Shown: piece by piece, positions 9,750 to 33,433 of the stretch
How the letters are laid out: each line of letters begins with the position of its first letter
Position numbering within the stretch: the first letter of the stretch is position 1
Source: an uncultured Gemmatimonadota bacterium
GTDB taxonomy: Bacteria; JAAXHH01
Direction: 5' to 3'
Assembly (NCBI GenBank): GCA_951812955.1
Contig: OX638340.1
Location: 608,001 to 672,000 of the forward strand
DNA length: 64,000 nt
Program-made: the position numbers and the translations under genes
The notes under the pieces: generated by a model
Told to the model about the DNA's origin: nothing
The model's input: the letters and a program-made list of their open reading frames with translations, nothing else
The model's database searches: none

Positions 9750-9757
9750 GGGCGAAC

Positions 9758-13479: not shown

Positions 13480-13564
13480 TCACTGGCAGGCCGGGCCGGT
13501 GATGGCTTTTAATGTAAACGGTGACCGGAAAGATCGTTTCAACGCGGTCGGAATGCCGCATGCC

Positions 13565-14845
13565 CTAAGCCCTGAAGAGATTCCGCGCCTTGTGAATGGC
13601 GGCGATCATGACATCGATCTCTTCGGAGGTGTTGTAGAAGTAGACACTTGCGCGCGCCGTAGCGCCATAGGGCGTGCCGAGTCGCCGCATCAGCGGTTGC
13701 GCGCAGTGATGACCCGCGCGGATGGCGACCCCCTGCCGATCCAGCACGGTGGACAGATCGCTGGGATGCATGTCTTCCAGGTTGAAAGAAACGGCGCCTC
13801 CCCTGCCCGGCGCGTGGCCGTAGACGGTCAGGCCGTCAATTTCCTCGAGCCGTCCGACCATGTAGTCCGTCAGCGCTCTTTCATGGGTATGAATCTGCTC
13901 CATGCCGACAGCTTCGAGGTAATCCACCACGTCTCCGAACACGATGGCATGGGCGATATTCGGGGTGCCTGCTTCGAATTTCTCTGGTATGTCCGCACAG
14001 GTAAACCCATCGAGGCGGACTTCGTCGATCATCGATCCCCCGCCCATGTACGGATCCATGGCTTCCAGCAGTTCCTCACGCCCGTAGAGTCCGCCGATAC
14101 CGGTCGGACCGCACATCTTGTGGCCGGAGAAGGCAAAGAAGTCGCAATCCAGACGCTGTACGTCCACCGGCATGTGAGGAACGCTTTGCGCGGCGTCTAA
14201 GAAGACCAGCGCGCTGGCCTGGCGGGCCCGCGTTACGATGTCGTCGATGGGGTTGACGGTACCGAGTACGTTCGACATGTGTGCGAGGGCGACGATGCGC
14301 GTCTTCTCCGAGATCAGCCGGTCCGCCTGTTCCATGTCGAGGGACCCGTCGTCTCGAATGTCGAAATACCGGATGACAGCGCCGGTTTCCTTCGCGAGCA
14401 TCTGCCAGGGCACGATATTGCTATGGTGCTCCATGACGGACAGCACGATTTCGTCCCCTGCCCGGACGTTCTTCCGGCCCCAGGCAGTGGCGACCAGGTT
14501 TATGCCTTCGGTGGTGTTGCGGACGAACACCAGGTTCCGGGCCGGCGCGTTGATGAATCGAGCCACTCGCTCCCGGGCGCCTTCGTAGGCATTGGTCGCT
14601 TCCTCGCTGAGCGTGTGGAGGCCGCGGTGTACATTGGCGTTGAGCCTGGTATAGTAATCGTCGAGGGCGTCGAGTACGACCCGGGGTTTCTGCGACGTCG
14701 CGCTGTTGTCCAGGTAGACCAGCGGTTTCCCGTGTATCCTGCGATCTAGAATTGGAAAATCACCGCGGTACCGCAGGGCGTGTTCGTCCGACCGGCGTAC
14801 CGCTTCATCCAGTTCTCGTGGCGTCTCAACCAGCGTTTCCGACAT
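13565..14845 (-). CDS. sufS: Cysteine desulfurase SufS (class V aminotransferase, group II).
   Basis: PLP-Lys context FSGHKMCGPTGIGGLYG. SufS active-site signature RAGHHCAQP. The ORF extends to 14890, but the ATG at 14845 (MSETLV) avoids overlap with the upstream gene. Confidence 0.9.
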   Translation of the reverse strand: MSETLVETPRELDEAVRRSDEHALRYRGDFPILDRRIHGKPLVYLDNSATSQKPRVVLDALDDYYTRLNANVHRGLHTLSEEATNAYEGARERVARFINAPARNLVFVRNTTEGINLVATAWGRKNVRAGDEIVLSVMEHHSNIVPWQMLAKETGAVIRYFDIRDDGSLDMEQADRLISEKTRIVALAHMSNVLGTVNPIDDIVTRARQASALVFLDAAQSVPHMPVDVQRLDCDFFAFSGHKMCGPTGIGGLYGREELLEAMDPYMGGGSMIDEVRLDGFTCADIPEKFEAGTPNIAHAIVFGDVVDYLEAVGMEQIHTHERALTDYMVGRLEEIDGLTVYGHAPGRGGAVSFNLEDMHPSDLSTVLDRQGVAIRAGHHCAQPLMRRLGTPYGATARASVYFYNTSEEIDVMIAAIHKARNLFRA

Positions 14846-14867
14846 AGATCCCTTACCAGCCAGGTGT

Positions 14868-15182
14868 TCAGTAGTCGATGCCAAGTTCAAGCTTGGCGTC
14901 TTCGGTCATCATGTCGATATGCCAGGTCGGTTCCCAGACGATCTCGATCAGCGCGTCCGAGACCTGTTCCAGGTCCTTCACCTTGGTCTCCACCTCGGCG
15001 GGGAGCGACTGGGCCGCCGGACAGTTCGGCGAGGTGAGCGTCATCTTGATGTTCGTCATACCGTCCTGTTGCACGTCGATCTCGTAGATCAGTCCCATTT
15101 CGTAGATGTTGACCGGGATCTCGGGATCGTAACACGACTTCAATACGTCCACGATCTGCTCTTTAACGGCATCCGTATCCAT
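14868..15182 (-). CDS. DUF59 / MIP18-family Fe-S assembly protein (SufT-like).
   Basis: 104 aa. DUF59 motifs (VLKSCYDPEIPVNIYEMGLIY...TLTSPNCPAAQSL). Embedded between sufD and sufS. Confidence 0.7.
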   Translation of the reverse strand: MDTDAVKEQIVDVLKSCYDPEIPVNIYEMGLIYEIDVQQDGMTNIKMTLTSPNCPAAQSLPAEVETKVKDLEQVSDALIEIVWEPTWHIDMMTEDAKLELGIDY

Positions 15183-15213
15183 CCATAGACTCCTGTAAGC
15201 GTGAATGCGCCGG

Positions 15214-16584
15214 TTATCTTCCCGCCTTGTCCCTGGCCAACGAAAGATCCCGGATCGTGGTCTCGAAAAGCGTATCCAGCGAGGACCTGACCGCGTCGAT
15301 CCTGAGACGCCGTATCAGGTCCGCCGCAAACCCGTAGGTGAGTAGACTGCATGCGCTGTCGTGTGACAGACCGCGGGTTCGCAGGTAGAAAATCTGGTCT
15401 TCGTCGAGCTGGCCCACGGTGGCGCCATGGGTGCATTTCACCTGGTCCGCGTAGATTTCGAGCTGCGGCTTGGTGTGTATCATCGCATCGGGCGACAGCA
15501 TCAGATTCTTGTTCAGTTGCTTGGCATCCGTTTCCTGGGCGTCCTGGTGGACGAACACTTTGCCGTTGAATACTCCGCGCGACCGGCCTTCAAGGATGCC
15601 CTTGTAAACCTCGTAGCTATCGCAGTTGGGTACGGCATGATCAATCGCGGTGTGATTGTCCACATGCTGATTTCCCGTAACCAGGAACAGTCCGTTCATG
15701 CGAACCACCGCGTGCTCGCCGTCAAGTCGGGCATTGGTGTCGTTGCGGGTCAACGCGCCGCCCATGCACATGTTGAAGGTTGAGATCCGGCCGTTCCCTT
15801 CCAGGTGCAGTTGTGTGGTGGAAAGGTGCGCGGCTCCGGCGCCTTCCCGGTTGATCCGGTAGTGATCCACGTTGCCGTCCCGGCCCACGGCGATCTCAGT
15901 CACCGCGTTGGTCAGGTAAGCCTGTTCGGTGAGCCCGGTATAGCTTTCGACCACTTTGAGGCTCGCGCCGTCGCCCGCCGCGATGAGCGTACGCGGCTGC
16001 GTGGCCAATGGCGTATCATGACCGGCGGTGACGTAGTGGACGTGCACGGGCGTTTCAAGGTGCCCGCCACGGGGTACATAAACGAACAGCCCATTCTCGA
16101 AGAGTGCCGAGTTCAAGGCCGTCAGGCCGGTTCGTTCAAACTCGGCATATCGTGCAAGGTGAGGACGAACCAACTCCGGGTGTTCGACCAGCGCTTCGGC
16201 AAGGGTGCTCACCACGGCGCCACCGGGCAGGCCGTCTACACGCGACAACGCGGGCGAGAACACACCGTTCACAAAAACCAGCCGGTGCCAGTCGTCCTGA
16301 CCGAATTCGTAAGGCGCAAGCGCGGCCTCATCGAGTCGAGCTTCTACCGGCCCTGCGTGATAGGATGTTTCCGCGATGCCTCGAAGATCGGTGTATACCC
16401 AGTCTTCCCTGAGCGGGAAGGCAATCTCACGTGCGACCGGCATCCCCAGTTCCCTGAAGTGCGCCATGGCATCCGAGCGAAGCCGGTGCAGCCACAACGG
16501 CGCGTCCTGGGACAGGACACGGTCGAAAGCATCATAGAACGTGGTGTAACGAGCCGTCTCTGCCTGTTTTATTGCTTCTGTCAT
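15214..16584 (-). CDS. sufD: Fe-S cluster assembly protein SufD.
   Basis: SufBD beta-helix domain. Start chosen at the internal ATG (MTEAIKQ), which gives a 28-nt gap to sufC. The longer ORF would overlap sufC. Confidence 0.8.
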   Translation of the reverse strand: MTEAIKQAETARYTTFYDAFDRVLSQDAPLWLHRLRSDAMAHFRELGMPVAREIAFPLREDWVYTDLRGIAETSYHAGPVEARLDEAALAPYEFGQDDWHRLVFVNGVFSPALSRVDGLPGGAVVSTLAEALVEHPELVRPHLARYAEFERTGLTALNSALFENGLFVYVPRGGHLETPVHVHYVTAGHDTPLATQPRTLIAAGDGASLKVVESYTGLTEQAYLTNAVTEIAVGRDGNVDHYRINREGAGAAHLSTTQLHLEGNGRISTFNMCMGGALTRNDTNARLDGEHAVVRMNGLFLVTGNQHVDNHTAIDHAVPNCDSYEVYKGILEGRSRGVFNGKVFVHQDAQETDAKQLNKNLMLSPDAMIHTKPQLEIYADQVKCTHGATVGQLDEDQIFYLRTRGLSHDSACSLLTYGFAADLIRRLRIDAVRSSLDTLFETTIRDLSLARDKAGR

Positions 16585-16612
16585 TTCGTGTTCCCGTTCT
16601 CCCTGTGATCGC

Positions 16613-17377
16613 TTAACCGGCTGCTTCCACTTCCTCCCGAATCCACTCGTAACCTCGTTCTTCCAGCTGGAGAGCGAGGTCTTTTTCACCAGACTTGACG
16701 ATCCGGCCCTCGTACATGACGTGCACGTAGTCCGGCACCACGTAATCCAGCAGTCGCTGGTAGTGGGTGATGACGATCATCGCATTGTCGGCTGATCGCT
16801 GCTGGTTGATCCCGCGCGCCACGATCCGCATGGCATCGATGTCCAGGCCGGAATCGGTCTCGTCCAGTATGGACAGAGTCGGCTCGAGCACGGCCATGTG
16901 GAAGATCTCGTTGCGTTTCTTCTCGCCGCCGGAGAAGTCCTCGTTCACCGGCCGCCTCGCCAGATCGGGGTCCATGTCGACCTGCTTCATCTTTTCGTTC
17001 ATCAACCGGCGGAACGCACCAGCGCTCATCTCCGACTCGCCCCGGTACTTCAGGCGCTCGTTCAGCGCGGCCCGCAGGAAGTAGGCATTGCTTACGCCGG
17101 GAATCTCGACGGGATACTGAAAGGCCAGGAACATGCCCTCGTTAGCCCGCTCCTCGGGTGTCAGCTCGAAGAGGTCCTTGCCATGGAACCGTACCGTGCC
17201 ACCGGTCTCCGCGTATTCCTCGTGGCCGGCCAGGATTTTGCCCAGGGTACTTTTGCCGGATCCGTTGGGACCCATGATCGCGTGCACCTCGCCCCGGTTG
17301 ACCGTCAGGTCGATCCCGTTTATGATGTCCAGGTCCTTGATGCCGCCGCGCAGATTTCTGATTTCCAGTAATGCCAT
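16613..17377 (-). CDS. sufC: Fe-S cluster assembly ATPase SufC.
   Basis: Walker A GPNGSGKST. ABC signature FSGGEKKR. 254 aa. Confidence 0.9.
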   Translation of the reverse strand: MALLEIRNLRGGIKDLDIINGIDLTVNRGEVHAIMGPNGSGKSTLGKILAGHEEYAETGGTVRFHGKDLFELTPEERANEGMFLAFQYPVEIPGVSNAYFLRAALNERLKYRGESEMSAGAFRRLMNEKMKQVDMDPDLARRPVNEDFSGGEKKRNEIFHMAVLEPTLSILDETDSGLDIDAMRIVARGINQQRSADNAMIVITHYQRLLDYVVPDYVHVMYEGRIVKSGEKDLALQLEERGYEWIREEVEAAG

Positions 17378-18901: not shown

Positions 18902-19420
18902 CTAGCGGCCTATCTTGATCGTACTGCCCATCGCCTGGTCCCGCGAGGTATCCTGGGAGACCTGCTCCACCACCTCGAGTACCTGGAATTCCGTCTGCAG
19001 CAGGTCCGACAGGGATATGTGATCGAGCACACCGGACAGGTACCGGGCCAGCACCGTCCAGACGGGACGGATGGCGCATGCGTTCAGGTGCGTGCACGCT
19101 TCCAGGTGACCGGAGAAATGTTCGCACATGTGGCTGTCCGGGCTGGTGAGCACAACCCCGTCTTCCGAACTCAGGGCGCGCATGACTTCGCCCAGCGAAA
19201 TGGTGTGCGGTTCCTTCTCCAGTGCGTAGCCACCCCTGATACCCCTTACGCTTCGTACAAGACCTGACCGCCTGAGGATCATCAGCAGTTTCGAGACGTA
19301 GTCCAGGGAAATGCCTTCCGATTCTGCGATTTGACGGCCCGTGACCGGGTCACGGGAATGGTGCCGTGCCAGCTGCAGAATGCAACGAAGGCCATATTCT
19401 TCCTGGGCGGTCACTTTCAT
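18902..19420 (-). CDS. Rrf2-family Fe-S-binding transcriptional regulator (IscR/SufR-like). First gene of the suf operon.
   Basis: N-terminal wHTH (EEYGLRCILQLARH...GRQIAESEGISLDYVSKLL). Three-Cys cluster CEHFSGHLEACTHLNAC. Confidence 0.8.
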   Translation of the reverse strand: MKVTAQEEYGLRCILQLARHHSRDPVTGRQIAESEGISLDYVSKLLMILRRSGLVRSVRGIRGGYALEKEPHTISLGEVMRALSSEDGVVLTSPDSHMCEHFSGHLEACTHLNACAIRPVWTVLARYLSGVLDHISLSDLLQTEFQVLEVVEQVSQDTSRDQAMGSTIKIGR

Positions 19421-19460
19421 GCCTTTGTCTCCTCTTTCCGTTCAATTTGCCTAACTGAAT

Positions 19461-19489
19461 ATAGCAAACCGGACTTTTATGTCAAGTAT
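19461..19489. promoter_or_regulatory. Candidate Rrf2/IscR-type operator in the AT-rich divergent promoter upstream of the Rrf2 gene.
   Basis: ATAGCAAACCGGACTTTTATGTCAAGTAT starts ATAG and ends AGTAT with internal GAC...GTC. This is reminiscent of the IscR type-1 site. Judged by eye only. Confidence 0.25.
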
Positions 19490-19675
19490 TAAATCCGCAG
19501 CAGTCGGCTGGGTATCCCGTGCGTGATTTGCCTGTAACGTGTGACGACGAAGCCGGATCTGCAACGGCATGCGGAATGACCTGTTCTATCTCCTTGACAT
19601 GGGGGACATCAGAAGTTACCGTCGATCCCAATCCACTTTAATCCCACTAAGCTACTAAAAGGACATTCTCATCAA

Positions 19676-20758
19676 ATGCCCAAGAAACTGGATGTACGCA
19701 TGATACCCGGCACCCGTTCCGTCGACGCGCTGACTGGCGAAGGCTATTTCCCTGTCATCACCTGTCTGGGTGGCAATGAACTGCTCCTGGCCTACCGGGC
19801 CGGCGCAGCGCACATGGGCCTGGGCGGCCGGCTGGACGTGAGACGGTCGGTCGACGGGGGCCTTAACTGGACTGCGCCTGTGACCGTGGCCGACAGCGAA
19901 AGGGACGACCGTAACCCCGCGCTGGGTCTGGCGCCGGACGGTACGCTTGTACTGGCCTATCACTGGCAGGGGTCCTACGATGACGAAGGCGCATGGAAAC
20001 TGGAATTGGGCAGGGCCGATACTCGGGTCGTATTCTCCGAGGATGGCGGCCATACCTGGACCGGTGACGAGCTCATCGATTTCACTCCGATCAACGGCGC
20101 CTCGCCCTTCGGCAAGATCTTCACGGTAGACGGCGTCATGCACATGCTGATCTATGGCGGTTCGCCCTGCTGCGAGGCCGGATCTGGAACGGTCAGGGTC
20201 GGGCCGGCTTCGACGCCGACGTACATCCTCAGATCCAGGGACAACGGGCGATCCTGGGGGGATCCCACGCTGGTCGCACTGGGACTCAACGAATCGGACG
20301 CAGCCATCCTACCCGACGGCCGCTGGCTCTTCGTCGCCCGTTCCGAGGACCGCGCCGAACAGGCGCTTTATGCCTGCGTTTCTGAGGACGGCGGGTACAC
20401 ATGGCGCAACGTGGGACGGGTCACGGACGCAAAGGAACATCCGCCGGACATCACCCTGATGTCCAACGGATGGCTGCTGCTGCTCTTCGGGCGACGGCAT
20501 CCTCCCTTCGGCGTGGAGGGCCTGATCAGCCGGGACGGCGGGATGACCTGGGATGATCGAAGACTGGTTCTGGACGACTCCCTGCCCGGCGGCGACATCG
20601 GTTATCCCTCCACTGCCCGCCTCGAAGACGGTCGTCTGGTTACCGCCTATTACACCGCGGGAACAGCGGAGAGAAAGTGGGAGATGTTCCGTGCCGCAGA
20701 CGTAGCATGCAAGGTCGTGTCTTACGACGAGTCCAGCCTTATTGATCACTGGAGCTAA
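19676..20758 (+). CDS. BNR/Asp-box repeat sialidase-fold (six-bladed beta-propeller) glycoside hydrolase-like protein with no signal peptide.
   Basis: Five Asp-box SxDxGxTW repeats (SVDGGLNWT, SEDGGHTWT, SRDNGRSWG, SEDGGYTWR, SRDGGMTWD). 360 aa. The N-terminus is not hydrophobic. Confidence 0.65.
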   Translation: MPKKLDVRMIPGTRSVDALTGEGYFPVITCLGGNELLLAYRAGAAHMGLGGRLDVRRSVDGGLNWTAPVTVADSERDDRNPALGLAPDGTLVLAYHWQGSYDDEGAWKLELGRADTRVVFSEDGGHTWTGDELIDFTPINGASPFGKIFTVDGVMHMLIYGGSPCCEAGSGTVRVGPASTPTYILRSRDNGRSWGDPTLVALGLNESDAAILPDGRWLFVARSEDRAEQALYACVSEDGGYTWRNVGRVTDAKEHPPDITLMSNGWLLLLFGRRHPPFGVEGLISRDGGMTWDDRRLVLDDSLPGGDIGYPSTARLEDGRLVTAYYTAGTAERKWEMFRAADVACKVVSYDESSLIDHWS

Positions 20759-20806
20759 ATATCGTAATGCGCTGTCCAAGAGCAGGTTACGTATCAGGAA
20801 CCTTGT

Positions 20807-21937
20807 GTGAGACTCGTTGATTCCGGTGAAATCCGCGACGGCCGTGCCATCCCGGATCACCGCAGGAACTGCGCCTTCACCACCATCAACAGGCTGAACG
20901 ACGGCACGATCCTCGTTTCAGGCCGGTGGGGAACGGCGCGGGATTCGGTGGACGGGCACGCCTGCATCTGGGCCACGTCGGACACCGGCCGTACCTGGCG
21001 CCTTCGATATGACGGAAACGGGAAGGGGACTTGGGACGGAACAGCGGGTGAAGTCAAGGGACTGACGAGTACGGAGCTGTCCCCAGGCACGCTCACGGCG
21101 ACGGCCCTGTGGGTCGACCGTTCCAATCCGGATCTTCCTTTCATCCATCCGGAAACGCAGGGCCTGCTGCCCATGCGCATCATGCACGTCGACTCGGGGG
21201 ACGGTGGCCGCACATGGGGTCCGCCGCGCCGAATGGACACAACGCCCCACCTCGCCGCTTCCCCCTGTTCACACCATATCATCCGGTTGTCCGGCGGTAC
21301 CCTTGTCCAGCCCTACGAACAGTGGAAGGAATACGGGGACACGTCGCCGGGCCGGCCCGCCGCGAGGCTGCGGTTATCACGGGACGGTGGGCGTAGCTGG
21401 CCGGATTTCGTCACCGTGGCCCGGCATCCGGACAACAAGCTCGCCTACTGGGACCAGCGGCTGGCTGTCCATCCCGTTGACGGCCGCCTGGCCGCCACCT
21501 TCTGGACCCACGATTTCGATGCGGGCGTCGACATCGACATCCATATCGCCTACGGGTCGCCGGACGGCCGTGCGTGGACGATCCCCCGCGGCACCGGACT
21601 TCCCGGCCAGCACTGCCAGCCCCTCGCCCTTGGTGGGGATCGCCTGCTGGCCGCTTATCCGCGACGCGGGGATCCTCCCGGCATCGTGCTTTCCATCAGC
21701 GAGGATTTCGGCGAAAGCTGGGACCGGAGCCGGGATCTCCTAGTCTACGACAGCATCGCCGGCAATGAGTCCGGATCCCGCGGCAGCCGTACGCAGTCCG
21801 AATTGTGGGGTGACATGGAGCGCTGGCGCTTCGGACATCCCCGGATGGTGCGATTGCCGGACGACGAGGTGTTCGTCGTCTACTACGCGGGAGATGATGC
21901 CGTCAAGACCGCGCGGTGGGCGAGGGTCCGCGTTTAG
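20807..21937 (+). CDS. Second BNR/Asp-box sialidase-fold protein, tandem to the first, also without a signal peptide. GTG start.
   Basis: Asp boxes SDTGRTW, SGDGGRTWG, SRDGGRSWP, SPDGRAWT, SEDFGESWD. 376 aa. Confidence 0.65.
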   Translation: MRLVDSGEIRDGRAIPDHRRNCAFTTINRLNDGTILVSGRWGTARDSVDGHACIWATSDTGRTWRLRYDGNGKGTWDGTAGEVKGLTSTELSPGTLTATALWVDRSNPDLPFIHPETQGLLPMRIMHVDSGDGGRTWGPPRRMDTTPHLAASPCSHHIIRLSGGTLVQPYEQWKEYGDTSPGRPAARLRLSRDGGRSWPDFVTVARHPDNKLAYWDQRLAVHPVDGRLAATFWTHDFDAGVDIDIHIAYGSPDGRAWTIPRGTGLPGQHCQPLALGGDRLLAAYPRRGDPPGIVLSISEDFGESWDRSRDLLVYDSIAGNESGSRGSRTQSELWGDMERWRFGHPRMVRLPDDEVFVVYYAGDDAVKTARWARVRV

Positions 21938-22009
21938 CCCGGCTTCGACACTGTCTGCAGGGCAGTGCCGCTGAGGATACGGTCCGACGATCAGTGCAGC
22001 GCCTGGGGT

Positions 22010-22083
22010 GAACGACTCTGGCTCAGCCTCGCACATCCCGCCAGAGCCGCGCTTGCGGCGTTCGATCCGGGCTCAGCCCCTCA
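22010..22083. repeat. Two copies of an imperfect 25-bp direct repeat 49 bp apart. Copy 2 is the 3' end, including the stop codon, of the enolase-superfamily gene. Copy 1 is intergenic.
   Basis: ggctcagcctcgcacatcccgccag (22010-22034) versus ggctcagcccctcacatcccgccag (22059-22083). A small hairpin (gccgcgcttgcggc) lies between them. Confidence 0.6.
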
Positions 22084-23263
22084 CATCCCGCCAGGGACGA
22101 ACCATAATCCGCTCGAAACCTGCCGGATCGATGTCCACGCCGAGTCCCGGGCCCGGTGGTACCGCCACGCAGCCGTCCTCATCCAACACAAAAGGCTCGG
22201 CGAAATAACCCTTGCCGATGAACGTCCGCCCATCCTCGCGCCAGCAATTCACTTCATTGTGTTCCTGGACCAGGAAGTTCGACGCGCAGGCGTCGATCTG
22301 AATGGATGCGGCGAGGGCCAGCGGGCTTAAGGGGCAGTGCAGGGCGAGTTTCGCATAGGCGCTTTCACCCATCACCGCGATCTTGTGACACTCGGTGATG
22401 CCGCCGGCGTGGCACAGGTCCGGCTGCATCACGGACAGGGCGTTCTTGCGCAGGGCGTCGTAGAAGATCCACTTGCCCATCCAACGTTCGCCGGCTGCGA
22501 TAGGGATTTCGCTGTTGCGCGCGATGTCCGCGAGCACGTCGACCCGTTCCACGGGCATGGGTTCCTCGATGAACAGGGGCCGGTGCGGCGTCAGGGCCGA
22601 TATCATCTGTTTGGCCATCACGGGGTGTGGATTATGGATATCCACGGCCACTTCCACATCGGGCCCGGCGCCCCTGCGCACGGCGGCGAAGGCTTCGGCG
22701 ATCCGCTCCACCTCCGAGGTGGGTTCCAGTCCGGTGCCCATGCCCACGTGCAGCTTCATGCACCGGAAGCCCCACTCCTCGACAATGACCCTGGCCGCCT
22801 CCTCATGCGCCCCGGGAAAATCCACGTCCGGGTCATACGAAGGATGATAACCCGCGTCGTAGGGCTGCCCGGGTTCCACGTACCAGGGCAGTTGTCCCCC
22901 CACAGCGCGGTACATGCGTATCCGGTCGCGGCAGGCTCCGCCAAGCATGGCATGGACCGGAAGCCCTGCGGCTTTGCCGGCAAGGTCCCAGAGCGCCATG
23001 TCGATTCCGCTGATCGCGCTCATCTTCACCGGTCCGCCGACATATCCCGAACCGCCCTCGTACATGGTATGCCAGAGCGACTCGACGCGGCAGGGGTCTT
23101 TCCCGACAAGCAACGGCTCCAGGCGCCGCACCTCGGCGATGACGCTTTCCGGGTGGTTTTCCAGGTAGGGTTCGCCCCAGCCGAACAGTTCGGTGTCCGT
23201 GTGGATCTTCAGCCATACCCAACTCGGCGGAACGCGCAGGATTTCGAAGTGAGTGATTCGCAT
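22073..23263 (-). CDS. Enolase-superfamily (mandelate racemase/muconate lactonizing enzyme) sugar-acid dehydratase, D-mannonate/D-galactonate dehydratase-like.
   Basis: 396 aa. MR/MLE N- and C-domain motifs (GWGEPYLENH, MKLHVGMG, VDIHNPH, FIEEP, MQPDLCHAGGITE). Confidence 0.75.
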   Translation of the reverse strand: MRITHFEILRVPPSWVWLKIHTDTELFGWGEPYLENHPESVIAEVRRLEPLLVGKDPCRVESLWHTMYEGGSGYVGGPVKMSAISGIDMALWDLAGKAAGLPVHAMLGGACRDRIRMYRAVGGQLPWYVEPGQPYDAGYHPSYDPDVDFPGAHEEAARVIVEEWGFRCMKLHVGMGTGLEPTSEVERIAEAFAAVRRGAGPDVEVAVDIHNPHPVMAKQMISALTPHRPLFIEEPMPVERVDVLADIARNSEIPIAAGERWMGKWIFYDALRKNALSVMQPDLCHAGGITECHKIAVMGESAYAKLALHCPLSPLALAASIQIDACASNFLVQEHNEVNCWREDGRTFIGKGYFAEPFVLDEDGCVAVPPGPGLGVDIDPAGFERIMVRPWRDVRG

Positions 23264-23340
23264 GCTCGGCTTTGCTCCCTGTTCTTGATGGCATCATGTT
23301 CTGACGGTATCACAAATCGTGCAATGGCCAGGACGCCTAC

Positions 23341-24318
23341 CTATCGGCCATAGACCGTCTGGATCATCGCACGGATGTAGCCGTTCGCGTAGGCCTTGCC
23401 TGCCGGACCAGCCATTGATTGGGGGAAGCCCGGTGTGTGGTCCATGCCGAAGGGGCCGCTGTACCCGTTATCGCGGTAGGTTTCCATGGCCCGGCGCATA
23501 TCCACTTCGCCCTCGTCGATGAAAACCTCCGCGAACCTCGGCAGCCGGCCTCTGACGTTCCGGAAATGGACCAGGGCGATCTTTTTCCGGGAGGCCATCT
23601 CGGCGATGATATGGTAGACGTCCTGTGGACCCGCCAGTTCGGTCATGCAACCCTGGCAGAAGAGCATCCTGTGATATGCGCTGGGTACCGCGTCGAAAAT
23701 CCGGCGGAAATGCTCCACCGTGGAGCAGATCTGCGCGACGCCGCCCAGAGGCTCCGGTATGGGCGGGTCGTCCGGGTGGAGCGCCAGGTTTACCCCGGCC
23801 TTTTCGGCCGCCGGGACCGCGGCGCGCATGAAGGCGACCATGTTGTCCCACATCACCTCGGCCGAGACGGGCGGCTCGTGGGGCTGCGGGCGGCTCCGGT
23901 CGAATTCGGCATAATCGAAGGTACTGTACACCGCGCCGCCGCGGCCGATGTCGGAAATGGTGCGGAAGTTGCCCATGGGCTTGAAATTCCAGGCCAGGGT
24001 CGGTATCCCTGCCTTGCCCAGGCATTCGATAAGCCGGACGAAAGCGCCCAGTTCTTCGTCCCGTTCCGCCGTGGCCAGCGTGATCCCCTCCAGGACCGGC
24101 ATGAAGACGGTCTGCAGTTTCAGCCCATGGGACTCGGTCTTTTCCCGGGCCTGTTCGAAAAGCTCGGTACTGTCTTTGCCCGCACGAACGTGCCGTTCCG
24201 CTTCGACCTTCCCTCCGGTCCTCAGGTCCAGCTGGATCATGTCCACGCTGATCGCGCGATAGAAACTAAGGGTCTCGTCGTTGAAATCGGACCAGTTTAC
24301 GACATCATGCAGGTACAT
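23341..24318 (-). CDS. uxuA: D-mannonate dehydratase (UxuA family, xylose-isomerase-like TIM barrel).
   Basis: Matches UxuA blocks: FMPVLEG (cf. FMPVLDW), LALHPDDPPIPEPLGGVAQICSTVEH (cf. [24 protein letters not shown]), HFRNVRG, GMDHTPG. Confidence 0.7.
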   Translation of the reverse strand: MYLHDVVNWSDFNDETLSFYRAISVDMIQLDLRTGGKVEAERHVRAGKDSTELFEQAREKTESHGLKLQTVFMPVLEGITLATAERDEELGAFVRLIECLGKAGIPTLAWNFKPMGNFRTISDIGRGGAVYSTFDYAEFDRSRPQPHEPPVSAEVMWDNMVAFMRAAVPAAEKAGVNLALHPDDPPIPEPLGGVAQICSTVEHFRRIFDAVPSAYHRMLFCQGCMTELAGPQDVYHIIAEMASRKKIALVHFRNVRGRLPRFAEVFIDEGEVDMRRAMETYRDNGYSGPFGMDHTPGFPQSMAGPAGKAYANGYIRAMIQTVYGR

Positions 24319-24380
24319 CGATCGCCTCCAATGCTGGCGCTACGGGTTGGACGACTTCCGCTTCGACCTGACCTACGGGA

Positions 24381-24428
24381 TGGTGATCTGGTGATCTGGT
24401 GATCTGGTGATCTGGTGATCTGGTGATA
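24381..24428. repeat. Perfect 8-bp microsatellite (TGGTGATC)x5 plus one variant copy (TGGTGATA). It lies in the divergent promoter between uxuA (-) and the HpcH aldolase gene (+). Every full unit contains GATC.
   Basis: Read directly from the sequence: tggtgatctggtgatctggtgatctggtgatctggtgatctggtgata. Confidence 0.9.
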
Positions 24429-24518
24429 AGATAACCCCCCGGGCCAGTGCAGCAATTCGAAAATCGATCAGACACCACGTATATCCATATTGGGCTAACG
24501 CAAAGCGGAATCATGTAT

Positions 24519-24524
24519 TATAAT
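24519..24524 (+). promoter_or_regulatory. Candidate sigma70 -10 hexamer TATAAT, preceded by TG-T, oriented toward the HpcH aldolase gene.
   Basis: catgTATTATAATcgg in a locally AT-rich stretch. The best -35 candidate (TTGGGC at 24490-24495) has poor spacing, so confidence is low. Confidence 0.3.
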
Positions 24525-24550
24525 CGGTAGTCCGGCGCACCCGTAGGCAT

Positions 24551-24618
24551 AGCGCATCCATAGGCTAAGCGCATCCGTAGACTGAGCGCATCCGTAAGCC
24601 GGCGCATCCGAATATCGC
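24551..24618. repeat. Four tandem degenerate 17-bp direct repeats (core AGCGCATCCGTA) between the putative promoter and the HpcH aldolase start.
   Basis: agcgcatccataggcta / agcgcatccgtagactg / agcgcatccgtaagccg / gcgcatccgaatatcgc. Confidence 0.8.
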
Positions 24619-24687
24619 GTACGGAAACACGGAGTCAATCCCATCCCATTTCAATCTCGGCAGGCAAACGACACAGGAGCCCTTCCA

Positions 24688-25413
24688 ATGGCGGAACGCA
24701 ACTTGAAACAGCGCATCGGCGCGGGAGAACAGGTCATCGGCGCTAACGTCGGCATGTCCCATACAAGGGAACAGCTTAAAAAGGTAGTAGAGTCAGGTGA
24801 GTACGACTTTCTCTGGGTAGACGGACAGCACAGCGCTTTCAGCGAAGACTCCCTGGTGGAATTCTGCGACAGGGCCGATGCGCTGGATGCCGACGTCATG
24901 TTCCGCATCAAGCACACGTTTCACAGCTACCTGGTCGGTAACCTGCTCGACCTTGGGCCCGCCGGGATCGAAGTGCCCCAGGTCGAATTGGAATCAACGG
25001 TGGATGAGGCGGTCGACTTCTTCTACTATCCTCAGCAGGGCATGCGGAGCTGGGGAGGCGGAGCGCGGCGTAAAGTGGATGAACAGGGCGGCGACCGGCT
25101 GGGCTATGCCGAGTGGTGGAACAACTACGGCGTGCTGATGATGCAGCTTGAATCGATACCCGCGGTGACAGGTGCGCGGAGACTGGCCAAAGCGGGGGTA
25201 GACTGCCTGTCCTTCGGTCCAAACGATCTCATGTACAGTATCGAGGCCCATCCGCACCATCCGTTCCGCGACGTGGACGATTGCGTTCGCCACGTGGTCG
25301 AACAGCTCGCCGGTTCCGGTACGAGGGTGTGTTTCCGGAACCACCCGGCCAGCATGCGGCAGCGGTACGTTGACATGGGTGTAACGGTGTTTCTGGAGAG
25401 TCCGTCGCTGTAG
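24688..25413 (+). CDS. HpcH/HpaI-family 2-keto-3-deoxy-sugar-acid aldolase.
   Basis: 241 aa. Family blocks GANVGMSHTRE, DFLWVDGQHSAFSE, MFRIKHT, ESIPAVTGA, CLSFGPNDL. Confidence 0.7.
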   Translation: MAERNLKQRIGAGEQVIGANVGMSHTREQLKKVVESGEYDFLWVDGQHSAFSEDSLVEFCDRADALDADVMFRIKHTFHSYLVGNLLDLGPAGIEVPQVELESTVDEAVDFFYYPQQGMRSWGGGARRKVDEQGGDRLGYAEWWNNYGVLMMQLESIPAVTGARRLAKAGVDCLSFGPNDLMYSIEAHPHHPFRDVDDCVRHVVEQLAGSGTRVCFRNHPASMRQRYVDMGVTVFLESPSL

Positions 25414-25486: not shown

Positions 25487-27316
25487 TTATGCGCCGGGAC
25501 GCCCTCCGGCAATGTCGGATTTCGCATCGAAATCCAAAGACTGAGCCTCGTACATCTTCGCGAATAGACCACCCTGTTCTACCAGTTCCTTCGGCGTACC
25601 CGATTCGGCCAGTCGGCCCTCACTGATAACCAGGATGCGATCCGCGTGCCGGATCGTCGAGAGTCTGTGGGCGATGACCATGATGGTTCGGCCGGTCCTT
25701 GCCCGTTCGACGGCGATTCGGATCTCTTCTTCGGCCAGTGCATCCAGGGCCGAAGTGGCCTCGTCAAGCACGAGAATACAGGTCGAGGTCCGCATGAGCG
25801 CACGGGCCATGGCGATGCGTTGCTTTTCACCACCGGATAGCAGGATACCGTCTTCTCCCGCCTCGGTAGCGTACCCTTCCGGCAGATTCTCAACGAATTC
25901 GTGCAGTGCGGAAGAACGCGCGGCTCGCTCCACCGCCTCAATTTCATAGTCCGCAACGGGGTAAGCGATGTTGTCGGCAAGCGAAGCGTTCCACATGAAA
26001 ACATCCTGGGGCACGACGGCGATTCGCGACCTGAGAGAGGCCAGCGTCATCTCGCGTACATCCGTTCCGCCAATGGAAATGCTTCCGCTTTCTGGTTCCT
26101 GCATACGGGTCAGCAGGTCGATGATCGTGGTCTTCCCGCCGCCGCTCGGCCCCACGATGCCGACGAACTCACCCCCGTTGACCGTGAAGGAGAGATCTTT
26201 CACCTCGTATCCCCGTTCATAACTGAACCAAATGTCGGAAAACTCGATAGTCGGAGGCGTGATGTCGATCCGTTCCACCGGGCGTCCACGGCCGAATCCT
26301 TCCTCAGCGGGAAGCGCGAATAATCCGTCCAGGCTCTTCACGGAGACGTCGATGAGTTTTGTGCCGGTATAGGTCGCAATTACGGACCGCAACGCGGCGG
26401 AGGCTCTCGGCGTATAGGCCATGACGGCCACGAGACTGCCGATGGTGATATCACCGGCCATGGCCTGGAAAGCGCCATATCCGAGGAGGACGCCCAGGAC
26501 CAGTCCGCTGATCACTTCGTTCGGAAAGTTGAGCACGATATCGTGGAGGGCCGCACCACGCATCTTAACCCGGGCGTGTTTTTCTAATAGCCCCCCACAT
26601 CGCTTCCTGGTATGCGTTTCCCCATTGAACAGGCGTATCGTACGAAACGCGCCGACCATCTCGTAGAGGAAGCTCTCGACGGCCTTGCTCTGTTCGTTCG
26701 AACGGCGGTCCATTTCCTTCGAGTACCTGGACAGGAACCGGGTGGCCAGGTACGTCGCCGGCATCGCGACACAGAAAATCACCGCGAGTTCGACATTTAG
26801 CAGGAACACCATGATCAGCGTCCCCGCCAGCATGATCGAGCTTGTAAAGACGGGGAGCAGTTCCTGCGCGATGTACATCTCGCCGATCCGGCCGGTATCC
26901 CGCGTAACGCGAAAGACGATGTTCCCCCTGGGGATCTTTTCCAGGGCGTCCAGCCTGACATGCAGAAGGTGGTTCAGGACCGCCTTGCGCAGGGCAAGGG
27001 TAACCGACGCACCGATGCGGACCCGCAGATGTCCCTGTACGTAGGAGAAAGCGATCGCCACCAGCGGCGTGGCGACCATGGCCACCAGCAGTCTCCACGC
27101 CAGTGTTGTATCCGACTCCGGGATCGCCGTGTCGAAGAGCATTTTGAAGAACAGGGGCTGGATCAGCATGACCGCTGATCCAGCGAGCATCATGATAACC
27201 GCGGCGCCAATAGTATACTTATGTTGATACAGCGTCTGCCGAACGACTTTGGCGGCATGTGCCACCGGTTCTTTGTTCCTGTGGACTCGATTGGCTTTCC
27301 GATCGTCTGATGGCAT
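25487..27316 (-). CDS. ABC exporter, fused permease and ATPase (MsbA/type-I exporter-like).
   Basis: 609 aa. Six N-terminal TM helices. Walker A GPSGGGKTT. Signature LSGGEKQRIAMARA. Walker B ILVLDEATSALD. Confidence 0.85.
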   Translation of the reverse strand: MPSDDRKANRVHRNKEPVAHAAKVVRQTLYQHKYTIGAAVIMMLAGSAVMLIQPLFFKMLFDTAIPESDTTLAWRLLVAMVATPLVAIAFSYVQGHLRVRIGASVTLALRKAVLNHLLHVRLDALEKIPRGNIVFRVTRDTGRIGEMYIAQELLPVFTSSIMLAGTLIMVFLLNVELAVIFCVAMPATYLATRFLSRYSKEMDRRSNEQSKAVESFLYEMVGAFRTIRLFNGETHTRKRCGGLLEKHARVKMRGAALHDIVLNFPNEVISGLVLGVLLGYGAFQAMAGDITIGSLVAVMAYTPRASAALRSVIATYTGTKLIDVSVKSLDGLFALPAEEGFGRGRPVERIDITPPTIEFSDIWFSYERGYEVKDLSFTVNGGEFVGIVGPSGGGKTTIIDLLTRMQEPESGSISIGGTDVREMTLASLRSRIAVVPQDVFMWNASLADNIAYPVADYEIEAVERAARSSALHEFVENLPEGYATEAGEDGILLSGGEKQRIAMARALMRTSTCILVLDEATSALDALAEEEIRIAVERARTGRTIMVIAHRLSTIRHADRILVISEGRLAESGTPKELVEQGGLFAKMYEAQSLDFDAKSDIAGGRPGA

Positions 27317-27470: not shown

Positions 27471-28742
27471 CTATCCCTGCCCCGATCCGCCGAGGACGTC
27501 TTCCAACTCGTTCACGAACACCTCGAGTTCGTCCGGCTTCCCGATGGTTACCCGCAGGTGATTGCTCAGGAGATTGATCTCCCTCGTCCGGTACCCGGAA
27601 CCGCCCCGTACCATCACGCCGCGTTCCATAAGCGCGGAGCCCATGCGGCGGCTGTCCCGCTTGACGTCCACGATCATGTAATTGCCGTGGCTCGGTGTGT
27701 ATGCCAGTCCCAGACGGTCGAATTCGGCGGACAGGTAGTCCTTGCCGTCGCTCACGACCTCTTTCGTACGGGCTACGAATTCGTGATCGTCCAGGGCCGC
27801 GAGGGCCGCGTGCATGCCCAGGGTGCTCAGTCCGCCGCCGAAGAACCCCATGTGCGCCATCAGCATATCCATCATGCGCTGGCTGCCGATCGCGTACCCG
27901 ATTCGCATGCCGGCCAAGCCGTAGATCTTGGAAAAAGTACGGGCGACGACCACATTGTCTCGCTCCAGGGCGAGTTTCGCGGCATCCCGGTAGTCCGGAT
28001 CCCGGACGAAGTGGATGTAGGCCTCGTCGATGAGGACGATGGCCTGCGCTGGCGCCGCGTCTACGAGGGACACCAGGTCCTCGTAGGGCACGATCGTTCC
28101 CGTGGGATTGTTGGGATTGGTGACGACGATCAGGGATGTTCTTGGAGTGATTGCCGCCTTCATGGCGTCGAGGTCGTGAACGAAGTCAGCCGTCGTGGGA
28201 ACGCGGACGGTACTGACGTCCTTGCCCATCATCTGATAGGTTTGAAAACCACGCGCGACCGATCCATAACCCGGGACCGCCTCGATGCACTCCCCGCCAT
28301 TGCTCGCGGCTATTACGGCCAGCGCCTGTAGTATCGGACCGGAACCAGGCGTGACCATTACCCGGTTCAACTCCCTGAAACGCATGAATGACCGCATGTC
28401 GCTAAAGCTCAGTTCGAAATCCTCGACACCCGGAACGCCGTGTAATTTGTTGAGACGAACGGGCAGATCGACACCGAAATCGTACCGGTTGATCTTGTGC
28501 AGGTTTTCGGCAATGGCCGCAACGGCGCGTGGCGAAGCGCCCAGGGGATTCTCGTTGGCTCCAATCTGGACCCGGCCCGGTTCCACGCCGTATCCGCGGA
28601 CGTCGCCGGCCTTCTTACCGGTCGCCATGGCCTGCGCGATCTCCCAGGCCGAACCTGAGGCGAGGGCGCCGGCACCCAGCAGGGCGCCTTTCATGAATCG
28701 ACGCCGCGTAAACCCGTTTTTTAATACACTCCCGAAACCCAT
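27471..28742 (-). CDS. Class I/II PLP-dependent aminotransferase (histidinol-phosphate/aromatic aminotransferase-like) with an N-terminal twin-arginine (Tat) signal peptide. Putatively periplasmic.
   Basis: Tat motif TRRRFMKGALLGAGALASGSAWE. Aminotransferase blocks GANENPLGASP, NPNNPTG. PLP-Lys context TFSKIYGLAGMRIGY. Confidence 0.75.
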   Translation of the reverse strand: MGFGSVLKNGFTRRRFMKGALLGAGALASGSAWEIAQAMATGKKAGDVRGYGVEPGRVQIGANENPLGASPRAVAAIAENLHKINRYDFGVDLPVRLNKLHGVPGVEDFELSFSDMRSFMRFRELNRVMVTPGSGPILQALAVIAASNGGECIEAVPGYGSVARGFQTYQMMGKDVSTVRVPTTADFVHDLDAMKAAITPRTSLIVVTNPNNPTGTIVPYEDLVSLVDAAPAQAIVLIDEAYIHFVRDPDYRDAAKLALERDNVVVARTFSKIYGLAGMRIGYAIGSQRMMDMLMAHMGFFGGGLSTLGMHAALAALDDHEFVARTKEVVSDGKDYLSAEFDRLGLAYTPSHGNYMIVDVKRDSRRMGSALMERGVMVRGGSGYRTREINLLSNHLRVTIGKPDELEVFVNELEDVLGGSGQG

Positions 28743-28903
28743 GGTATGAACCTCCATTCAATGATTACTCGTAAATTGCATCGTATCTACAAAGTGTACA
28801 CCACCTAAGAGTCTGAACCTCCAACTAAAGATTGCCTGCGGATTTCCCACCATCCAAATGTGTAACGCCTGAATTCGAAACCTTATTTCGCTACCTTATT
28901 TCG

Positions 28904-30568
28904 TTACCTGATGTTGAGCCTTGCCATTTGCGTGACGATGTAGTCGGCGCAGCGGAACGCGAGCGCCTGTATGGTTAGCGTCGGGTTGCTCTTGCCGCTG
29001 GTGACGAAGGACGAACCGTCGACGATGAACAGGTTGTCCACGTCGTGGGCCTGGTTGAACTTGTTCACGACCGACGTCGCCGGATCGTTGCCCATTCGGC
29101 AAGTGCCCATGAGATGGGCGTCGCCATGGGGCACGAAATTCGGAGAGGCCACGATCCCATGGGCGCCGGCGGTGTCCAGCAGTTCGCGTGCGCGGTCCCG
29201 AAAGAAGTCGCCGAGTTTGTGCTCGTTCGGATGCACGTTGTACGTCACACGCGGTACCGGCAGGCCCCACTTGTCGTTTACGTCCGGGTCCAGGTCGATC
29301 ATGTTGGATTCCTGGGACATGGACTGCATGCTGGTAAGGGCGACCATGTACCGGGTGTAATTGTCCATGATCCATTTCTTGCGGCGGGCGCCCCACCTGC
29401 GGAGCCGGGGCATGTTCAGGTTGGCGAAGGAAATGGTTTCGCCGTCACCCCGCGGTTCCAGCACGCCTCCGCCGAAGAAACCGTACTTGTCCGGATCCGG
29501 GTCGTAGAAATCCTGGATAATGCGTGAATCCATGACGCCTTTGTACTCGTTGAGATCCTTTTCGTAGAATCCCCGGGCGGACTGGTAGTAGTTGAACATC
29601 AGGTGCCTTCCCACCTTGCCGCTGCTGTTGGCGAGGCCGTCCGGAAAGAGATTGGACTTCGACATGAGCAGCAGGCGCGGCGTATGGACGCCGTTACAGC
29701 AAACGATTACCGCGCGGGCTTCCAACCGGTGTTCACGCAGGTCTTTATCCAGATAGATCACTCCCTCGGCCCGGCCATCCTCGTCGACCACGATCTCCCG
29801 AACGCAGGCATCGGCCCGTATCTGGCAGTTGCCCGTCCTCAGCGCCTGGGGAATCATGGTAACCAGCATGCTGGACCGCGCGCCGATGGTACAGACGTAA
29901 CTTTCGCAGAAACCGCAATTCATGACCGGCGGCCGGCCTCCGTATTCCCGCGAGTTGATTGCCAGCGGCGCCGGATACGAGTGCCATCCCAGCTTCTGGG
30001 CGGCCATGTCTGCCAGGGCGCCCGAACTGGTTCGCGGCACCGGCGGCATGGGGTAGGGACGGCGTCGCGGCGGATCGAAGGGATTGGCGCCCGCCAGGCC
30101 GGATATCCCGACTTCGTATTCGGCCTTCTCGTAGTAATGTTCCAGGTCCCAGTAGTCGATGGGCCAGTCCTGCACGTCCGCGCCGTCCAGGTCGCCGAAA
30201 AGGCTTCTTTCCTTGAAATCGTTCTCGTGCAGCCGCCAGGAAATACCGGTGTAATGGAGCGTGCTGCCGCCCACCGTGCTTTGCATGTGAATCCCGTGAT
30301 CTTCAACGGCCTGATCGTCCGACGACTGCCGGTACGTATTGGGCTGATCGTGGCGATAGATGTTGGGATGGTCATGGTTATTGCTGGCGGGATGCATCGC
30401 CTGGAGTTCGTCCTGGTCGAAGTGGCGCGTCTTTTGAAATGATCCCATTTCCATGGCGACCACCTGCAGGCCCTTCGTGCTCAGTTCCTTGGCCATGACC
30501 GCGCCGGCGGCGCCTGTGCCGATGACGATGACGTCCGGTCGTCGAATCGTGGGATTGGGCAGGGACAT
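28904..30568 (-). CDS. GMC-family FAD-dependent oxidoreductase, large subunit (gluconate 2-dehydrogenase / glycoside 3-dehydrogenase-like).
   Basis: Rossmann FAD motif [22 protein letters not shown]-terminal blocks ([33 protein letters not shown]). 554 aa. Confidence 0.8.
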
Positions 30569-30581
30569 GGGGACTCCGAAA

Positions 30582-31262
30582 CTACGCTTCGCCGACGATT
30601 CTACTCTTCATCGGACCGTCATATGGCTTCCATTCGGGGTATTCGATCTCCGGAATGGTCATGTCGAATTCACTGAAAGGGGGATCGTAGCCAAAAGCCG
30701 CGCGACCTGGAAATCGGATCAGCTTCCATCCGGTCTCGCGATAGTTTCCGCCATAGGAGGGATCACTGAACATGCCCTCCATGGTATGCGTGACCAGCAT
30801 GCGCAGGAAATCCCTGGCGCCCATGGGGGCGTCGTCCGGCCAGTTCCGCGGGGACCTTGCACGGTCGATACCCATCAGGGCCCTGCGCTGATTTCTTGTA
30901 TCGAGATCCAGGAAGCCGGCTTCGTGCGAGAGCTGACAGTACCGGTCGAAAGCGGCCAGGCCGGAGACATAGGACTCCTTGTATTCGGCCCGGTGGCTGC
31001 CGAGGGCCCGGTCGATGTATACGATCACGCGGGCTTCCGCCGCACCGGGGTCGTTGTCGTCGGACGGCATGATCATCCGGGTCAGCGCGTCCACGGTACG
31101 GCCCTGGCGGGCGTCCAGGTTCTGCCAGGTGTATTCGAAGGGAGGTGTTTCCTGGGCGTCGATCGCACCGGTACGGGACAGCACGCCAAGTGTTATCACT
31201 CCACCGGTCGCCCGTGCGGTATTGGAAAGAAACGATCGGCGGGAAAACGGCTTTGACGTCAT
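30582..31262 (-). CDS. Small (gamma) subunit of a gluconate-2-dehydrogenase-type GMC oxidoreductase, with a Tat signal peptide.
   Basis: Tat motif SRRSFLSNTARATGGVITLGVLS after the Met at 31262. Lies 13 nt upstream of the GMC large-subunit gene. Confidence 0.6.
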   Translation of the reverse strand: MTSKPFSRRSFLSNTARATGGVITLGVLSRTGAIDAQETPPFEYTWQNLDARQGRTVDALTRMIMPSDDNDPGAAEARVIVYIDRALGSHRAEYKESYVSGLAAFDRYCQLSHEAGFLDLDTRNQRRALMGIDRARSPRNWPDDAPMGARDFLRMLVTHTMEGMFSDPSYGGNYRETGWKLIRFPGRAAFGYDPPFSEFDMTIPEIEYPEWKPYDGPMKSRIVGEA

Positions 31263-31460
31263 GGATTCCAGGCTCCCGACTCTATAGTTTCCATCGTTCG
31301 AATGCACATCAGGACTGTATACACATATCGCGTTGATTTATTCAATCTATCCGCTTCGAAAATACGGTTGAAAACCGGGTTGACAATAGAATTCGGCAGG
31401 GTTCTGATCGCGCGGGCAAAGAGGTTGACGGCAATACCCGCGAATCTATATTCATAAAGC

Positions 31461-33417: not shown

Positions 33418-33433
33418 GGTTGGTTTTATTCCG

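Follow-up and report, generated by a model that had tools for sequence, protein, structure and literature searches.

What do two proteins with the fold of sialidases and no signal peptides do beside dehydratases and an aldolase of the kind that act on sugar acids? The question is raised by a five-gene island (positions 19676-25413) in a 64,000-nucleotide stretch of contig OX638340.1 (assembly GCA_951812955.1), from an uncultured Gemmatimonadota bacterium; this whole stretch is hereafter called the window. The island holds two adjacent propeller proteins, BNR1 and BNR2, followed by an enolase-superfamily dehydratase, a UxuA-like dehydratase and an HpcH-like aldolase. Our answer, tentative and held with somewhat less than even confidence, is that the cell would take in an acidic sugar derivative, possibly an amino sugar, and process it by a modular cytoplasmic pathway in which the propellers would serve as front-end enzymes. 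The BNR pair probably handles such an imported acidic sugar rather than stripping sialic acid from host surfaces. The features of the island are as follows.

19676-20758, plus strand: BNR1, 360 amino acids; Pfam BNR_2 at 73.9 bits (cut-off 31.4)
20807-21937, plus strand: BNR2, 376 amino acids; Pfam BNR_2 at 39.6 bits (cut-off 31.4)
22073-23263, minus strand: enolase-superfamily dehydratase, DgoD-like, 396 amino acids; MR_MLE_N and MR_MLE_C
23341-24318, minus strand: UxuA-like dehydratase with a xylose-isomerase-like TIM barrel, 325 amino acids; Pfam UxuA at 133 bits (cut-off 23.7)
24319-24687, no strand: divergent intergenic region with conserved boxes and two variable tandem repeats
24688-25413, plus strand: HpcH/HpaI-family class II pyruvate aldolase, divergent, 241 amino acids; HpcH_HpaI at 52.2 bits (cut-off 25)

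Gene calls reproduced the coordinates and strands of the five genes as first described, with both dehydratase genes convergent on the BNR pair and the UxuA-like and HpcH genes pointing away from each other on either side of a 369-bp spacer. Profile matches place an Rrf2-sufBCD operon on the left flank of the block and an MsbA-like ATP-binding cassette (ABC) exporter on the right.

Two cytoplasmic propellers of the sialidase fold

BNR1 and BNR2 are single-domain sialidase-fold propellers (AlphaFold models with pLDDT 93.1 and 92.7, respectively), having the six-bladed beta-propeller and the Asp-box repeats by which GH33 is recognized. The five Asp boxes ascribed to each protein by the original prediction were recovered, all of them strict in BNR1 (S-x-D-x-G-x-x-W at residues 58, 121, 187, 236, and 285), while BNR2 has three strict boxes (residues 130, 191, and 298) and two degenerate ones (T-x-D-x-G-x-x-W at 57 and SPDGRAW, one residue short, at 251). 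The two proteins are ~26% identical and their family profiles align over the full length (99.4% probability). The predicted lack of signal peptides also held, i.e., neither N-terminus is hydrophobic (maximum Kyte-Doolittle values of 1.28 for BNR1 and 0.54 for BNR2 in an 11-residue window), the N-terminal residues of both form a propeller strand in the AlphaFold models, and no upstream alternative start codon was found for either in the gene calls. Among homologues, a signal-peptide-like N-terminus occurs in 3 of the 115 BNR1 relatives and effectively none of the 120 BNR2 relatives, and nearly all BNR2-family matches are ~375 amino acids long with alignments beginning at residue 1. Judged by sequence, the two families, which are large and distinct from each other, are essentially cytoplasmic bare propellers; fold, absent signal peptides and strongly conserved pockets (see below) all agree with the initial view of the pair as sialidase-fold and intracellular. 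The BNR2 profile retrieves 232 clusters (50% identity) at E<=1e-30 and 881 at E<=1e-10.

Departures from the canonical sialidase active site

Against 7lbu, a sialidase of Propionibacterium acnes, the BNR1 family profile aligns without a register shift, and this alignment designates E206 as the Glu partner, R222 and R274 as the second and third Arg, and Y310 as the Tyr nucleophile, all four being invariant across 31 BNR1-family sequences, down to 38% identity. The position of the RIP arginine, the first of the GH33 triad, is occupied by an invariant F25-P26-V27. Also invariant in the family are R41, H46, and D77-D78-R79-N80, of which D77 and D78 sit in blade 2, while in the blade 1 loop that bears the acid/base Asp in GH33, BNR1 carries H46, aligned with a histidine of Pseudomonas aeruginosa PA2794.

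PA2794 (PaNA; PDB 2w38, 3h6j) has the highest identity among the sialidases matched by BNR1 (23%) and gives the best alignment to its N-terminal half. Common to the two are F25, R41, H46, D77, R79, E206, and R222 (BNR1 numbering), seen as an F at the RIP position, Y-R-x-x-x-x-H-x-G, a D-x-R in blade 2, and N-E...R in blade 4; we take PA2794 to be an enzyme in which histidine replaces the usual acid/base aspartate. However, it is a protein of 438 amino acids, unlike the 360-residue bare propeller without signal peptide that is BNR1, identity is low, and the C-terminal third falls outside the sequence alignment; PA2794 is also exported and equipped with an extra trimerization domain. A passage in a review citing the structure paper reports that PA2794 cleaves pseudaminic acids (PMC3658417). 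The best sequence match of the BNR1 family profile is Dfer_1899 of Dyadobacter fermentans (PDB 5hx0; E 4.6e-29), which shares the F-P, N-E...R, R-H-x-P-x-G, and D-x-G-Y-P motifs with BNR1. It is only 19-22% identical and a structural-genomics protein that permits no functional transfer, and a full-text literature search on Dfer_1899/5HX0 returned nothing relevant.

The catalytic positions of BNR2 were mapped via the BNR1 alignment, not directly onto a solved sialidase. By this route the Glu partner E206 corresponds to D216, the second Arg R222 to W233/T234, and the Tyr nucleophile Y310 to H344, and R287 (at the position of R274) is the only one of the three triad arginines kept. F24-T25-T26 stands at the RIP position, where F-P is found in 61-64% of the wider family. 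Thirty BNR2 sequences have 66 invariant columns, and 99 full-length representatives of the wider family conserve F-P (24, 25), R40, D104, E171, K174, W215-D216-x-R218, W233, H246, Q268, R287, G343-x-P345, and Y360, residues of the propeller top face as judged by secondary-structure position. Position 344 is variable (H, L, or A) in these 99 distant members and offers no Tyr nucleophile, so BNR2-type proteins, on this alignment, cannot use the sialidase tyrosine mechanism, and the conserved acidic and cationic pocket points to catalysis on a presumably anionic substrate. A His-ligated metal site, suggested at first by invariant H51, H148, H246, H269, and H344, was dropped family-wide because only H246 is conserved among the distant members, and a BNR2 profile alignment to the sialidase 1eur was discarded for residue mapping, its register being off by one blade.

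Missing catalytic residues, which would make the two proteins non-catalytic propellers, had been named in the original prediction as a finding that would refute it, and the outcome counts in part against it: BNR1 keeps the Tyr/Glu pair and two Arg without the RIP Arg, and BNR2 has lost the Tyr nucleophile and two Arg, with one Arg kept. By their residues neither is a canonical sialidase, because the RIP Arg is missing in both and BNR2 also lacks the Tyr and the second Arg. Canonical sialidases, by contrast, are secreted and have all three Arg as well as the Tyr, Glu, and Asp. Thus, it is very improbable that BNR1 and BNR2 are ordinary GH33 exo-alpha-sialidases taking Neu5Ac from host (sponge) glycans, an account to which the sialidase fold of both, the labels 'exo-alpha-sialidase' or 'sialidase family protein' in the source records of homologues, and the GH33 enrichment reported for sponge symbionts, Gemmatimonadota and Latescibacterota among them (PMC8163846), lend themselves. 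Beyond the lost residues, it is opposed by the absence of a signal peptide in either protein, by the lack of a match of BNR1 or BNR2 to any NCBIfam sialidase model, and by the absence of NanK, NanE, and NanT types among the genes annotated around the island. The GH33 enrichment in sponge symbionts has been read as host sialic-acid harvesting (PMC8163846; PMC6306507). Genes of this kind are routinely annotated as 'exo-alpha-sialidase' or GH33, and neither BNR family fits the harvesting reading; at least part of the sponge-symbiont GH33 signal may reflect a different chemistry, because both families are cytoplasmic and without parts of the sialidase catalytic set. The GH93 exo-arabinanase (PDB 3a72) differs as well, being a secreted fungal enzyme with a neutral arabinan substrate and no sequence-level match.

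The two dehydratases and the aldolase

The only NCBIfam cut-off passed by the enolase-superfamily protein is that of the DgoD equivalog NF010624, and only marginally so (345.4 bits, cut-off 311), with the match falling into two stretches owing to an insertion of ~30 amino acids. Against the ManD model it reaches 171 bits (cut-off 550), which corrects the ManD/GalD-like character first proposed: the protein is DgoD-like and not ManD-like. Its best solved relative is 3rr1 (1e-77), in alignment with which D208, H210, E233, E259, D282, and H309 are kept. The UxuA-like protein lies under both of its NCBIfam cut-offs (117.7 against 191 and 71.7 against 199.55 bits) and is ~40-90 amino acids shorter than the mannonate dehydratases 3ban and 1tz9, with which its HPDD (181-184), C221, H251-x-R253 (H-x-R-N), and D293-H294 motifs align. 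By these motifs it belongs to the UxuA family, an assignment of membership and not of mannonate specificity. The notion of two mannonate dehydratases in one operon was hence an overstatement, as the enolase-type gene is DgoD-like and is missing from four close relatives.

The HpcH-like protein keeps H48, R73, E155, and D180 (aligned with 3qz6 and 4tv5) and has Q47 at the position of the canonical glutamate. Scores against four NCBIfam equivalogs (HpaI, two GarL, and RhmA) are 38-63 bits, with cut-offs of 369-441; by sequence it belongs to the HpcH/HpaI family as a divergent member, which implies no specificity, and members of its own family occur widely, at 55-67% identity. By their retained residues the enolase-superfamily, UxuA-like, and HpcH-like proteins all look like active enzymes.

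Sugar-acid enzymes recur beside the propellers

Neighbor genes in the loci of relatives (numbered L001 onward) were mapped with seed-based phmmer, and 168 loci were grouped into 60 clades (70% identity), "near" being within 2.5 kb of a propeller and "far" 2.5-10 kb away. The recurrent neighbors across the ~60 clades are NAD(P) dehydrogenases, HpcH or DHDPS aldolases, sugar-acid dehydratases, Amidohydro_2 proteins, and aminotransferases. A dehydrogenase lies near the propeller in 16/60 clades, a pyruvate aldolase in 7/60, and a dehydratase in 5/60. Gene density near and far is 0.025 vs 0.005 per kb for aldolases and 0.075 vs 0.027 per kb for dehydrogenases; the near/far ratio for the enolase superfamily is only 1.7 on small counts, which we treat as not significant.

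The closest public sequences (L010-L028) come from uncultured marine metagenome-assembled genomes that are 78-95% identical across the block and were deposited as 'bacterium', Gemmatimonadota, or Candidatus Latescibacterota; in several cases the isolate names suggest sponge metagenomes. The five-gene block is kept in these 19 relatives, all of them close, the enolase gene being the one that is missing from four (L014, L019, L020, and L021). The link between propellers and sugar-acid enzymes extends beyond such plain synteny, as BNR2 occurs with the UxuA-like gene alone in L029 and with the enolase and HpcH genes, without BNR1 and the UxuA-like gene, in L044. L029 is a distant Latescibacterota genome in which a BNR2 gene directly precedes a UxuA-like one; the encoded proteins are 72% and 71% identical, respectively, to their window counterparts. 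The two lie there within 13 genes on one strand (1753-17136), in the order DUF2961, GFO_IDH_MocA, PhyH, PhyH, DegT aminotransferase, Amidohydro_2, a weak GHL10-like match, BNR2, UxuA-like, Amidohydro_2, GFO_IDH_MocA, DegT aminotransferase, and PhyH; the dehydrogenase/aminotransferase pairs suggest amino-sugar processing.

Aldolases of other lineages adjoin the propellers as well. BNR2 is convergent with an HpaI-type HpcH gene in Chloroflexota (L046-L061), only 25% identical to the HpcH of the window, and is followed in Dehalococcoidia (L067-L083) by a member of the DHDPS family other than DapA (96 vs 206 bits). BNR1 accompanies HpcH in L155 and follows DHDPS and an SHMT-like gene in L122. Metagenome loci of the BNR1 family show BNR1 followed by an SDR or by two GFO_IDH_MocA genes, the orders ADH, BNR1, SDR, DegT aminotransferase and ABC permease, BNR1, HpcH, and an arrangement with an Opp-type importer on one side of BNR1 and a SASA esterase on the other. 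Opp-type ABC importers, SASA esterase, and DegT or class III aminotransferases are all among the neighbors of BNR-family members. The counts are small, yet chance would hardly bring aldolases of two unrelated folds next to the propellers time and again, and non-orthologous pyruvate aldolases adjoining BNR1 or BNR2 relatives in 7 of ~60 clades bear out the proposed tie of the BNR proteins to sugar-acid enzymes.

The converse explanation, that in a variable suf-side locus the BNR pair merely happens to adjoin the dehydratase and aldolase genes, with an unrelated and possibly binding role for the propellers, is in our estimate quite improbable. It gains from the different modules that this locus holds in related lineages (L001, L101, and L044), from an ABC exporter that is present or absent within the block, from the unrelated neighbors of many BNR homologues, and from relatives of the window's HpcH that stand elsewhere without BNR partners. 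It is countered by the recurrence of two unrelated aldolase folds by the propellers in seven clades and several phyla, by the adjacency of BNR2 and the UxuA-like gene in L029, and by the invariant top-face pocket residues of both propellers, which argue for catalysis. At the Rrf2-sufBCD locus, L001 and L101 carry a glyoxalase gene, BNR1, and an SDR gene, L044 holds BNR2, enolase, and HpcH, and the window clade (18902-25413) has all five genes; the window block has the look of two modules joined into one.

The reverse test started from distant homologues of HpcH in three other lineages, on five contigs, and there BNR neighbors were absent. In two of the three (L169/L170 and L174/L175) a protein of ~435 amino acids comes directly after the HpcH relative (8677-10008 in L169, 8714-10018 in L174). 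Considered as a hidden propeller, it was rejected for having no Asp boxes and no BNR similarity; the proteins of L169 and L174 are 45% identical to each other and have no Pfam match.

A candidate pathway and its alternatives

What the sequences and models show is the fold of the propellers, their cytoplasmic location, the catalytic residues retained or missing, and the gene neighborhoods that recur. For the cytoplasmic pathway that we favor, the propeller chemistry, the order of steps, and the substrate, as we infer them, would be the following. BNR1 would most likely be a retaining exo-glycosidase of the PA2794 kind, acting on a small ulosonic-acid-type glycoside, and BNR2 would probably act on compounds of the same class in another way, by hydrolysis or hydration, relying on the pocket acids and bases D104, E171, K174, D216, R218, and R287. 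The acid sugar thus released would be dehydrated by the DgoD-like and/or the UxuA-like dehydratase, and the HpcH-type aldolase would cleave the dehydration product to pyruvate and an aldehyde. In favor of this pathway stand the catalytic set of BNR1 and its likeness to PA2794, the strong constraint on BNR2, the recurring gene contexts with their higher aldolase and dehydrogenase densities near the propellers, and the importers, esterase, and aminotransferases beside family members.

Several observations weigh against this pathway. The first triad Arg is missing in both propellers, BNR2 is without the nucleophile, and its position 344 is variable. A glycosidase that yields a 2-keto-3-deoxy acid needs no downstream aldonate dehydratases. 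Enrichment counts are small (six aldolase matches near vs three far), many BNR-family members are solitary or beside unrelated genes, the reverse test above gave no BNR neighbors, and the source records of homologues of either BNR family give no tested function. Among the annotated genes of the window, the island has neither an importer nor a further glycoside hydrolase; with no transporter in the island, the earlier suggestion that the substrate is taken up intact is left without backing.

Known systems offer partial parallels. Canonical sialic-acid use (GH33 NanH with the NanA lyase of the DHDPS family) likewise sets a sialidase-fold gene beside a pyruvate aldolase, and the 2,7-anhydro-Neu5Ac route, comprising an intramolecular trans-sialidase (IT-sialidase), the GFO_IDH_MocA-type oxidoreductase NanOx, and NanA (PMC7535918), is matched by the GFO_IDH_MocA oxidoreductases often found near BNR genes. 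However, the aldolase at BNR loci is often of the unrelated HpcH fold, and the aldonate dehydratases present in the island have no place in the known sialic-acid routes. Literature searches on sialidase-like cytoplasmic propellers tied to aldolases were unproductive.

A more specific proposal makes BNR1 and BNR2 the first cytoplasmic enzymes (glycosidase and ring processing) in the catabolism of bacterial nonulosonic acids of the pseudaminic or legionaminic type, or of KDN. The aldolases would be nonulosonate lyases, and breakdown of the deoxy or amino sugar set free would fall to the dehydrogenases, aminotransferases, and dehydratases. We give it only a small chance; to our knowledge, a pathway of this kind has not been described. 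If true, it would provide uncultured marine symbionts with a defined means to feed on bacterial cell-surface sugars.

The main rival to our pathway is an oxidative non-phosphorylative sugar route in which the propellers are lactonases or other ring-opening hydrolases or isomerases, filling the slot usually taken by SMP30-type propeller or Amidohydro_2 lactonases, with the order dehydrogenase, lactone, BNR, aldonate, dehydratase, 2-keto-3-deoxy acid, aldolase. Routes of this type (L-rhamnose LRA1-4, L-fucose, Weimberg, and Dahms) resemble the island in passing from an enolase-superfamily or other acid-sugar dehydratase to an HpcH or DHDPS aldolase acting on 2-keto-3-deoxy acids, with dehydrogenases near. 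The neighbor families suit the Weimberg, Dahms, and L-rhamnose/L-fucose oxidative routes (SDR, GFO_IDH_MocA, and Zn-ADH; enolase, UxuA, and IlvD; HpcH and DHDPS; FAH and ALDH), a dehydrogenase being near the propeller in the 16 clades counted above. The aldonate-type dehydratases of the island require an aldonate input, the conserved neighbors include a GMC dehydrogenase that leaves the cell by twin-arginine export, and the propellers are cytoplasmic with no glycan-handling genes close by. However, the lactonases of the known pathways are of the Amidohydro_2 or SMP30 type, no sialidase-fold protein takes part in them, and the island of the window has no sugar 1-dehydrogenase inside. The sialidase Tyr/Glu/Arg/Arg constellation is precisely kept in BNR1, and the combination of a profile match and close structural similarity that would mark an SMP30/gluconolactonase-type lactonase was not found for the propellers. 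At least four independent clusters (L003, L007/L041/L042, L029, and L141) contain both Amidohydro_2 and BNR genes, and this co-occurrence counts against a lactonase role because functional substitutes ought to be mutually exclusive. We know of no precedent for a sialidase-fold lactonase and consider this route unlikely. What likelihood is left falls to chemistry of some other, not yet conceived kind.

Once the BNR activity is defined, thousands of proteins could be annotated, the 232 clusters given above being those of the BNR2-type family alone. It could also bring to light either a novel function for the sialidase fold or a route for acidic or amino sugars that has yet to be described.

Wider neighborhood and intergenic spacer

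The following features lie to the right of the island.

25487-27316: MsbA-like ABC exporter, a variable insertion
27471-28757, minus strand: HisC-like aminotransferase
28904-30568, minus strand: GMC oxidoreductase
30582-31307, minus strand: GMC oxidoreductase small subunit, with a twin-arginine export signal (SRRSFLS motif)
32476-37728: second sugar-acid-like cluster, 7-12 kb downstream of the island

The exporter is absent from L010, L014, L017, L018, L022, L026, and L028. The aminotransferase, the GMC oxidoreductase, and its small subunit are found downstream of HpcH in every close relative and in L044, and directly after HpcH in L010 and six other relatives; they are conserved neighbors with a possible functional link to the island. 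The second cluster encodes a 2-hydroxyacid dehydrogenase, a PhyH dioxygenase, an IlvD/EDD-family dehydratase (743 bits to PRK06131; 653 bits to the L-arabinonate dehydratase model, cut-off 882), an isochorismatase-like protein, and a PfkB kinase, so that three mechanistically different types of acid-sugar dehydratase occur inside 14 kb. The contention that the island follows an aldolase rather than a kinase route is weakened by this PfkB kinase and IlvD/EDD dehydratase so close downstream.

In the spacer between the UxuA-like and HpcH genes, two boxes are invariant within the clade, AAGATA and TTATAATCG, the latter being a candidate -10-like element on the plus strand. The spacer also contains tandem repeats at 24381-24427 (8-bp TGGTGATC, x5.9) and 24535-24610 (17-bp GCGCATCCGTAGGCTAA, x3.6-5). 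The 8-bp repeat has ~2 copies in relatives of 94-97% identity (L010 and L091), and both repeats are missing from relatives at ~85% identity.

Two further genes were seen in passing. A gamma-glutamyltranspeptidase gene directly adjoins BNR1- or BNR2-type propellers in several loci unrelated to one another, L005 (8369-11074), L007 (8101-11131), L100, and L104. At 39054-40841 the window encodes a 595-amino-acid protein with a Lamin Tail Domain and a FlgD Ig-like domain, and a FlgD_ig protein is also present near a BNR1 homologue in L006.

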